A DNA stretch of 64,000 bases from Escherichia coli (GCF_045037415.1 NZ_CP173438.1); one strand, 5' to 3'; counted from the first letter of the stretch, positions 10,901-11,913 are shown. Translations and numbers: made by a program. Notes: generated from the letters alone by a model not told the origin.

Positions 10901-11014
10901 ACGCACTCGGTTGCGATTGGCTCACATGGACACACCATCACCGTTAACGCTGCTGGTAACGCGGAAAACACCGTCAAAAACATCGCATTTAACTATATTG
11001 TGAGGCTTGCATGA
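7988..11014 (+). CDS. stf: Side tail fibre protein (Stf-like)
   Basis: 1008 aa; long Ala/Ser-rich repeat stalk; duplicated KKGI(V/I)[11 protein letters not shown](S/T)[11 protein letters not shown] motif; C-terminal repeated [15 protein letters not shown]xH units typical of fibre tips. Confidence 0.85.
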
Positions 11015-11913
11015 TTACGCTCATTCTTTCTGCACCAGTAACCGAAATGGCTGAAGCATTTAAGCGGGTATTTGCAAATGCAGATAATGTGAATATTGTC
11101 GGAAAGCCATTTGAAACAATCAGAGAATTTGACTGCATGGTAAGTGCGGCAAATAGTTTCGGCCTGATGGATGGCGGTGTTGATGCCGCCATTACCACAT
11201 TCTTCGGTTCTCAGCTACAGGCCCGCGTTCAGAATCATATTCTTCGTGAATATCTCGGCGAGCAGCCTGTAGGTTCTGCATTTGTTATTGAAACGGGGCA
11301 TAATTATCACCCCTGGCTGGTACATGCGCCAACAATGCGTGTTCCGTTGACAATTGACGGAACAGACGCTGTATATAACGCAACTTGGGCAGCTCTACTT
11401 GCTATCTTTCAGCACAATAAAAACGCAACGACAGACAGGAAAATAAAGACGGTGGTATTCCCTGCAATGGGAGCCGGATGTGGTCAGGTGCCGTTTGAAA
11501 GCGTTGCCCGGCAGATGAAGCAGGCATGGGATAACTTTAATAAAAAAACAGAATCAATTAACTGGGAATACGCACAATCCCGCCAGTCGGCAGTATTTGG
11601 CACATATGCATACTGTCCGGGTAATTCTGTTTGCCGTTATGCGGATACTAAATATATTGGATGCGGCGATTATCGGACGTATTGCTCACGCTCCGGGCAG
11701 GTCTGTATTAACCCTGAACATCAGGCTGATGATGTACTGATACAACATCAGGCTAATAACCGGTTTCGCCCTGGTTCGCATATACACCGGATTAATCCAG
11801 AAAATCCTGTAGGTAATGTCATCTCTGGCGCACATAGCCACGGAAGTAGCATCGTTATTGGTGCTCACACCCATACGCTCAATAAACAATATTCTGTCTC
11901 TGATATTAAGTAG
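11011..11913 (+). CDS. Macro-domain (ADP-ribose-binding/hydrolase-like) protein with Cys-rich and HxH tail-fibre-tip-like C-terminus
   Basis: 300 aa; [18 protein letters not shown] and [14 protein letters not shown] resemble macro-domain diphosphate-binding loops; C-terminal [18 protein letters not shown] resembles the stf tip; ATGA overlap with the stf stop. Confidence 0.65.

Follow-up and report, generated by a model that had tools for sequence, protein, structure and literature searches.

ADP-ribose is read and erased mainly by macrodomains. Two described groups are close to the subject of this report, a 300-amino-acid (aa) macro-domain protein whose gene lies in a prophage of Escherichia coli (GCF_045037415.1, NZ_CP173438.1) between the side tail fibre gene stf and the tail fibre assembly gene tfa; the whole stretch analysed, 64,000 nt in length, is called the window below. 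The first group is the Macro2-type clade, whose only studied member, yeast YMR087W (Ymx7), is an Appr-1''-p (ADP-ribose-1''-phosphate) phosphatase without de-mono-ADP-ribosylating (de-MARylating) activity (PMC6397177). The second consists of the AdfM macrodomains of phages (PhiKZ gp104, PhiPA3 gp108 and T4 Tk.4), which are DarG2-like and strip the ADP-ribose of DarT2 from DNA (PMC13309987; 10.1101/2025.11.20.689424).

The window protein has the motifs VS.(A/G)NS.G...GG.D.A, H.PT...P and PG(L/M)G(T/A)G.G.VP in common with YMR087W, at only ~20% identity. It adds a Cys-rich module and a tail with His boxes and is encoded in a tail fibre operon, whereas the role of the yeast enzyme lies in the metabolism of a tRNA-splicing by-product. 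The AdfM proteins are likewise phage-encoded macrodomains, stand-alone and used as counter-defence, and two groups recently showed that they defeat DarTG2, but they belong to another clade (DarG/ALC1-like, with N+K catalysis); fold and profile comparisons place the window family in the different, almost unstudied Macro2/YMR087W-like clade. New here is the architecture of macro domain, Cys module and His boxes, locked into a fibre cassette.

The original prediction, made from the sequence alone, had proposed a 300-aa ORF with an N-terminal macro domain and a tail-fibre-tip-like C-terminus. The ORF is present and intact, and can be divided as follows.

11011..11913, + strand: macro-domain accessory gene, 300 aa, ATG start (ORF; Pfam Macro; phrog_2613, E 3e-147)
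11011..11595, + strand: Macro2-type (YMR087W-like) macrodomain with its N-terminal beta-alpha extension, residues 1-195
11596..11739, + strand: Cys-rich segment, residues 196-243, with the conserved pattern YCPx5C...YIGxGDxRTxCx6CIx3HQxDD
11740..11910, + strand: variable tail, residues 244-300, with three GxHxH His boxes (H257/H259, H275/H277 and H286/H288)

Many enteric prophages already have an annotated member of the family. The Prokaryotic Genome Annotation Pipeline (PGAP) names this gene 'macro domain-containing protein' (WP_000631346.1), and the identical gene is annotated in E. coli genomes. The Gifsy-1 record carries the note 'contains pfam01661' on its macro gene, and phrog_2613 is labelled 'unknown function'.

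The macro domain is genuine and its diphosphate-binding loops are intact. Pfam Macro (PF01661) matches residues 44-169 with an E-value of 1.1e-18 over model positions 1-118 of 118, and Pfam Macro_2 gives a weak match. Both glycine-rich stretches quoted in the original prediction are found, at residues 45-61 and 148-161; they contain loop 1 (N48-x6-G55-G56-V-D58) and loop 2 (G154-A-G156-C-G158). A structure prediction, which had been proposed as a check together with the profile search, agreed with this full-length match: the AlphaFold2 model (63-sequence alignment) reached a predicted local distance difference test score (pLDDT) of 94-99 over residues 1-190 and, compared with Foldseek, adopts the three-layer alpha/beta/alpha macro fold. 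The first match in the PDB was yeast Ymx7/YMR087W (1NJR; E 6.7e-11, 198 aligned columns, root mean square deviation 3.0), followed by Thermus TTHA0132, macroH2A, macro 1 of PARP9/14, OiMacroD, MacroD2 and DarG. The best 50 of the 205 fold matches at E<=0.001 were all macrodomains or designs on a macrodomain scaffold, the designed entries being serine hydrolases built on TTHA0132. Searching PDB sequences with the family profile (hmmsearch) returned the same order, with 1NJR at E 2.7e-15 over profile positions 2-178. This alignment starts at position 2 and hence includes the N-terminal beta-alpha extension. By fold and by profile, then, the closest characterised relative is YMR087W, which places the domain in the Macro2-type clade.

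Across 63 homologues, with identities down to ~35%, residues N48, D58, P107, T108 and G158 show at least 90% conservation or do not vary at all. The putative catalytic residues, whose inspection had also been proposed, are present (N48 and D58), and the spacing of N48, G55 and D58 equals that of N30, G37 and D40 in OiMacroD, residues singled out by mutant PDB structures. Because of the fold, the relation to 1NJR and these conserved positions, binding of an ADP-ribose-type ligand is very likely and catalysis likely. We rejected an assignment as a MacroD-type O-acetyl-ADP-ribose deacetylase (PRK00431 equivalogs), which scored 51.9 bits against a cut-off of 246; all NCBIfam equivalogs for ADP-ribose binding and O-acetyl-ADP-ribose deacetylation remained below threshold (at most 52 bits versus cut-offs of 200-315). 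Membership of the DarG/AdfM group was rejected as well. The NCBIfam DarG model gave 12.7 bits against a cut-off of 250, and the PADLOC DarG match (E 0.005) covered 39 residues only.

A library-wide search yielded 2360 cluster representatives at E<=0.001, mostly stand-alone proteins of 190-215 aa. Some carry other fusions, which read from their sequences as WD40-like repeats or phosphatase-like C-terminal domains; the Cys/His-box extension occurs only in the enteric phage clade. The nearest stand-alone homologue (63% identity) lacks the tail and is encoded on a phage contig with ParB and methyltransferase genes on one side and terminase downstream. Four bacterial or metagenomic stand-alone homologues lie on contigs too short to reveal a gene neighbourhood. 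In the viral structure library, the best matches were macro proteins of jumbo phages and giant viruses, and the Tk.4 (AdfM) homologue of Acinetobacter phage 133 ranked 16th (E 2.7e-5). Noxifer gp265, phiRSL1 ORF054, FBKp24 gp159, PhiPA3 271 and the Mimivirus and Marseillevirus macro proteins are of the same subtype (30-38% identity) and uncharacterised; unlike the window protein they are stand-alone, without a Cys/His-box tail, and lie outside fibre modules. PhiPA3 thus has, besides its AdfM gp108, a protein (271) that resembles the window protein (E 4e-13). In the jumbo phages Noxifer, phiRSL1 and FBKp24 the homologues are placed among non-structural genes, and we therefore rejected the labels 'tail protein' and 'tail assembly-like' as evidence of a structural role. 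Evidence supporting the 'phage tail protein' labels of many homologues was not found; transfer of annotation out of the enteric family accounts for them best, and they are not to be trusted.

In Klebsiella phage FBKp24 (locus L007, 1454-2017) the homologue so named lies three genes from a Tpt1/KptA-like RNA 2'-phosphotransferase (3914-4513). RNA 2'-phosphotransferase makes the precursor of Appr-1''-p, and this neighbourhood hints at an Appr-1''-p or RNA-repair context for this macro clade in jumbo phages.

To see how the gene is maintained in enteric phages, we compared ratios of nonsynonymous to synonymous substitution rates (dN/dS) for the three parts of the protein; in the all-pairs comparison, dS reached ~1.

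Residues 1-195, macrodomain: 0.10 over all pairs, 0.12 within the E. coli type, 0.15 within the Salmonella type
Residues 196-243, Cys-rich segment: 0.22 over all pairs, 0.20 within the E. coli type, 0.36 within the Salmonella type
Residues 244 to end, tail: 0.54 over all pairs, 0.50 within the E. coli type, 0.45 within the Salmonella type

By these ratios, residues 1-243 are clearly functional, whereas the tail is weakly constrained or diversifying. That the gene is a non-functional relic, a decaying insertion or fibre fragment, can hardly be upheld and is already contradicted by the selection on the macro domain and the Cys-rich segment at such values of dS. Its ORF of at least 253 aa is kept in 75 of 78 loci across E. 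coli, Salmonella and other enterics, so that the decayed fibre fragment envisaged at the outset was not found. What a relic would explain are the truncated copies in the other three loci, the relaxed constraint on the tail and Salmonella phage SEN34, in which only a remnant is left. This remnant (locus L090, 3501-3647) corresponds to the Cys-rich part and has an O-acetyltransferase moron as its neighbour and a short tfa upstream; it is an example of cassette decay.

The macro gene and its neighbours form a tightly packed unit.

7988..11014, + strand: stf, side tail fibre gene, 1008 aa (phrog_295, E 1e-250)
11011..11014, + strand: ATGA, in which the start codon of the macro gene and the stop codon of stf overlap (GCATGATT)
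11922..12506, + strand: tfa, tail fibre assembly gene of the TfaQ/TfaR type (phrog_105, E 6e-100; PGAP annotation)

From the ATGA overlap, translational coupling of the macro gene to stf is predicted. The macro gene ends in TAG, with GAGG next; this Shine-Dalgarno sequence of tfa (11913-11916) lies 5 nt upstream of the tfa ATG at 11922, which follows 8 nt past the macro stop. A consensus scan revealed neither a promoter nor a terminator separating the macro gene from stf and tfa. We considered a frameshift or readthrough fusion of the macro ORF with stf and rejected it: no slippery heptamer is present at the junction CTT GCA TGA, and an ATGA overlap is a usual signal for coupling.

As a rule, tfa was expected to come directly after stf. 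This holds for the Qin prophage of K-12, in which the stfQ stop overlaps the tfaQ start (GTGAGGCTTGCATAATGGCATTCAGAATGAGT) with no gene between. In the window, the corresponding junction reads GTGAGGCTTGCATGATT, followed by an insert of ~0.9 kb and then GAACATGGATTTCAGAATGAGT. Homology to Qin stops exactly at the stf stop and restarts at the tfa start, and both flanks, namely the conserved segments of the tip on one side and tfa on the other, match K-12 at 94-95% nucleotide identity (tfa itself 95% to tfaQ). The GC content at third codon positions (GC3) is 0.40 in the insert versus 0.48 in both the stf tip and tfa, and its overall GC content is also below both flanks. This bears out the view of a gene inserted into an otherwise contiguous stf-tfa pair. 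Among 5426 complete E. coli genomes, the macro gene was found in 127 (130 places, 22 of them on plasmids), the tfa type of this window in 5209 (13,673 places). By its distribution the macro gene is an accessory cassette and not a core fibre component. Given the exact insertion relative to Qin and the 127 versus 5209 genomes, it also appears dispensable for the assembly of gp37-type fibres by this Tfa type.

These data bear directly on the idea that the macro protein helps the gp37-type tip to fold or mature together with Tfa. Its constant position between fibre and chaperone genes would suit such a cofactor, and the His boxes could engage the same chaperone. We nevertheless regard it as very improbable: stfQ and tfaQ of K-12 are adjacent without a macro gene at 94-95% nucleotide identity to this cassette, and thousands of genomes carry this tfa type against the 127 with the macro gene. 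Conserved residues of catalytic type would be unnecessary in a chaperone, no chaperone signal was obtained from PHROGs or Pfam (neither database yielded a Tfa family match), and the gene accompanies several head variants of the tip, the stf tips beside it in the E. coli group ranging from 56% to 100% identity.

We then asked whether the position of the gene is constant in other phages. From IMG/VR, 80 loci were retrieved with peptide patterns of the family, 78 of which include the upstream flank. In all 78, stf ends in ...(A/Y)NYIVRLA with an (A/G)TGA overlap, and tfa lies directly 3' of the macro gene in all of them except one (L079, with no tfa match). In loci of the Salmonella type, the macro gene and tfa share 11 nt. 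The stf-macro-tfa triplet was found on several backbones.

Lambdoid backbone: example Gifsy-1
Peduoviridae (P2-like) backbone: example SEN4/SEN5
Myovirus-like backbone: example Escherichia phage Chuche
97-kb phage-plasmid bearing ddrA: NZ_CP033848.1 (locus L094, 5001-5903), presumably P1-like

Non-mobilizable plasmids of ~47-112 kb with phage genes (holin, ddrA) also bear the triplet and are likely phage-plasmids. The varied stf tips indicate that the macro gene is not tied to one receptor-binding head. In the simplest reading, the cassette moves by recombination, for which the conserved 3' end of stf and the 5' end of tfa serve as arms; the macro gene may also be functionally tied to the fibre or to Tfa.

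The original prediction had also described a Cys-rich segment followed by HxH repeats like those of the stf tip. Both elements are present, and the likeness to the tip holds for the GxHxH motif but not for homology. Conservation of the extension was assessed in an alignment of 15 family members and in 61 unique IMG/VR alleles. The Cys-rich segment has cysteines at positions 202, 208, 218, 225 and 232; C202, C225, C232 and H237 are invariant in the 15-member alignment and C208 nearly so. AlphaFold2 predicts a beta-hairpin at residues 211-225 (pLDDT 61-79), and the segment is probably a small metal-binding module. The tail varies in length and sequence across the family, always with one to four G(A/S)HxH boxes. 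It is disordered in the monomer model (pLDDT <50). With three copies of the tail connected through GS linkers (12-sequence alignment), the AlphaFold2 model was uninformative, with a pLDDT of 28.7 and a predicted template modelling score of 0.17. The 51%-identical outlier L088 has an unrelated tail that is again Cys- and HxH-rich, with four HxH boxes. As the property is kept despite the unrelated sequence, a metal-binding Cys/His extension seems to be maintained in the fibre-linked clade.

The adjoining fibre tip provides the comparison for these boxes.

10367-11011, + strand: last 215 aa of stf, a receptor-binding tip of the T4 gp37 type (PDB 2XGF, E 3.5e-88) that has iron-binding HxH boxes

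In 2XGF, iron is coordinated by HxH motifs arranged along a trimeric needle. The stf tip has a variable head segment set between conserved parts (collar, needle and His boxes); this head differs from K-12 stfQ in that homology is absent across roughly 10717-10844. The macro tail has GxHxH boxes as the T4 gp37 tip and the stf tip do, but lacks the collar, head and C-terminal segments, and no homology is detectable beyond the motif. BLASTP of the tail against the upstream stf aligned with the His-box region only (best E 0.002). Pfam Phage_fiber did not match the macro protein significantly (E 7.5), phmmer with the C-terminal 105 aa found nothing in the PDB even at E<=10, the same 105 aa retrieved only their own family from PHROGs, and tblastn of the C-terminal part against the phage collection returned only family members and the SEN34 remnant. 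At the nucleotide level, a 35-nt stretch of the tail is 74% identical to the His-box stretch of stf, which appears too little for recent copying. In GC3, the tail (0.36) goes with the remainder of the macro gene (0.41) and not with the stf tip (0.48), and its suggested nature as a fibre-tip piece is not supported. Its fibre likeness is thus, as far as sequence comparison goes, a resemblance at the motif level without demonstrable homology.

Even so, the boxes could serve a virion-associated accessory. Here the His-box tail, perhaps with the Cys module, would form a metal-coordinated trimer in the manner of the gp37 needle, Tfa possibly assisting, and three macro domains at or near the fibre tip would bind or process a surface ligand or enter the next infection. 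The boxes are of the same type as those of the adjoining gp37-like tip, at least one is present in every family member and four in the outlier, the gene always directly precedes tfa and is coupled to stf, and a tail disordered as a monomer is expected if folding needs oligomerisation. We nonetheless consider this role unlikely. The tail resembles neither solved fibres in the PDB nor Pfam Phage_fiber significantly, its third box is gone in several E. coli alleles (GTPTH, GAPTH) and its dN/dS is ~0.5. Furthermore, the ligands of macro domains, ADP-ribose derivatives, are intracellular, ~99% of cassettes with this tfa type carry no macro gene, and virion proteomics on the family was not found in the literature.

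What is established, namely the domain identity, the conserved ligand-loop residues, the exact insertion, the constant synteny and the purifying selection, leads us to a tentative proposal, the most probable of those considered, to which we give slightly less than an even chance: a late, stf-coupled, cytoplasmic hydrolase or phosphatase of an ADP-ribose derivative that benefits the phage, possibly in counter-defence. The gene would be transcribed with the late fibre operon, presumably at the corresponding time, and translated by termination-reinitiation coupling to stf. The cassette would move among lambdoid, P2-like and P1-like phage-plasmid backbones, presumably via recombination in stf 3' and tfa 5' sequences. 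Late in infection, the two glycine-rich loops would bind an ADP-ribose derivative in the cytoplasm, and the N48/D58 pair would hydrolyse it. Small molecules resembling Appr-1''-p, immune signals derived from NAD, and ADP-ribosyl adducts are candidate substrates. The phage may thereby escape immunity based on ADP-ribosylation or NAD-derived signals, partly triggered by late structural proteins such as fibres. A cytoplasmic enzyme is suggested by the stand-alone relatives (the 63% homologue and those of jumbo phages and giant viruses), which lie outside tail modules, and counter-defence by the precedent of the AdfM phage macrodomains, although these are of another clade. According to a 2026 preprint, alleles of the side tail fibre and its chaperone determine sensitivity towards type II Thoeris, which signals through His-ADPR; this provides a rationale, but not evidence, for a fibre-linked ADP-ribose enzyme.

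Several points weigh against this proposal. Most known anti-defence genes are early, whereas the macro gene is placed for late expression. YMR087W is reported to lack de-MARylating activity, so a role as de-ADP-ribosylase of protein, DNA or RNA is not the default expectation. The constant stf/tfa linkage and the conserved Cys/His-box extension are unexplained by a free cytoplasmic enzyme and give a hint that the protein is physically linked to the fibre or the chaperone. Full-text literature searches found no functional study of the fibre-linked macro family, and because gpJ is frameshifted here, the gene may do nothing for phage production in this host.

A variant that would account for the linkage joins enzyme and fibre. 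Translational coupling to the gp37-type fibre would exist because this fibre, with Tfa, triggers a defence that consumes NAD or signals by ADP-ribose, such as type II Thoeris, against which the macro protein would act late as an enzyme or sponge; the Cys/His tail would dock to the nascent fibre-Tfa complex or to the sensor, and the signal would be destroyed or ADP-ribose removed on site. In this specific form we find it rather improbable.

It is also doubtful, though conceivable, that the gene is a moron benefiting the lysogen, in which low expression from the prophage protects the host, for instance by detoxifying ADP-ribosylating toxins of competitors or other phages, while the gene hitch-hikes at the recombination-prone stf/tfa junction. 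Its accessory distribution and foreign base composition fit, as do the defence cargo (RT_UG17 and SLATT) at the same prophage end and the intact macro gene in a prophage with frameshifted gpJ. This intactness is uninformative, however, because at least 20 genomes hold a 100% identical copy. Promoter- or terminator-like signals of its own were not detected, the strict 4-nt overlap with stf is atypical for morons, and the gene also occurs in phage isolates deposited as complete genomes (Chuche, SEN4/5). Expression data for Salmonella STM2587, presumably a macro gene of this family (predicted operon STM2586-2588; one of its three genes up 3.1-fold after mutagen), were too weak and were not used.

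About 2% of complete E. coli genomes carry the gene, as do many Salmonella prophages, Gifsy-1 among them. It is common, conserved and unstudied, and the present data neither indicate an unusual mechanism nor support any one specific function (anti-DarTG, anti-Thoeris or virion modification). If the counter-defence role is true, it would widen the set of phage tools against ADP-ribose and give viral Macro2-type domains a first biological role; attachment to the fibre, if true, would be a new kind of enzymatic fibre decoration.

The gene order around the macro gene (tape measure, L, K-like peptidase, I, J, lom, stf, macro, tfa) is that of a lambdoid tail module. The prophage integration site adjoins yecD/aspS, and an identical prophage is annotated in E. 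coli THO-003. The tail-tip gene J (window 3697-7170, + strand) is broken into three ORFs at 3697-4665, 4518-5126 and 5257-7170, and PGAP marks gpJ as frameshifted in the THO-003 prophage. With gpJ split, the prophage is probably defective for the production of infectious particles. Between J and stf, a gene for an Ail/Lom-family outer-membrane protein (7238-7837, + strand) has a lambda-like placement, and a strong terminator-like hairpin (7941-7970) directly precedes stf. In the N-terminal half of stf, residues ~110-450 (window ~8300-9350, + strand) form a long low-complexity repeat region rich in Ala, Ser and Thr, and these repeats give rise to long spurious ORFs in the other frames and on the opposite strand.

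Beyond tfa, a reverse transcriptase gene of class UG17 (12619-13995, - strand; PADLOC RT_UG17, E 8e-159) overlaps a SLATT-domain gene (13967-14671, - strand; E 2e-57), a candidate anti-phage pair of the DRT type. With ~33% GC, the pair is clearly foreign cargo, inserted directly after tfa at the prophage end.

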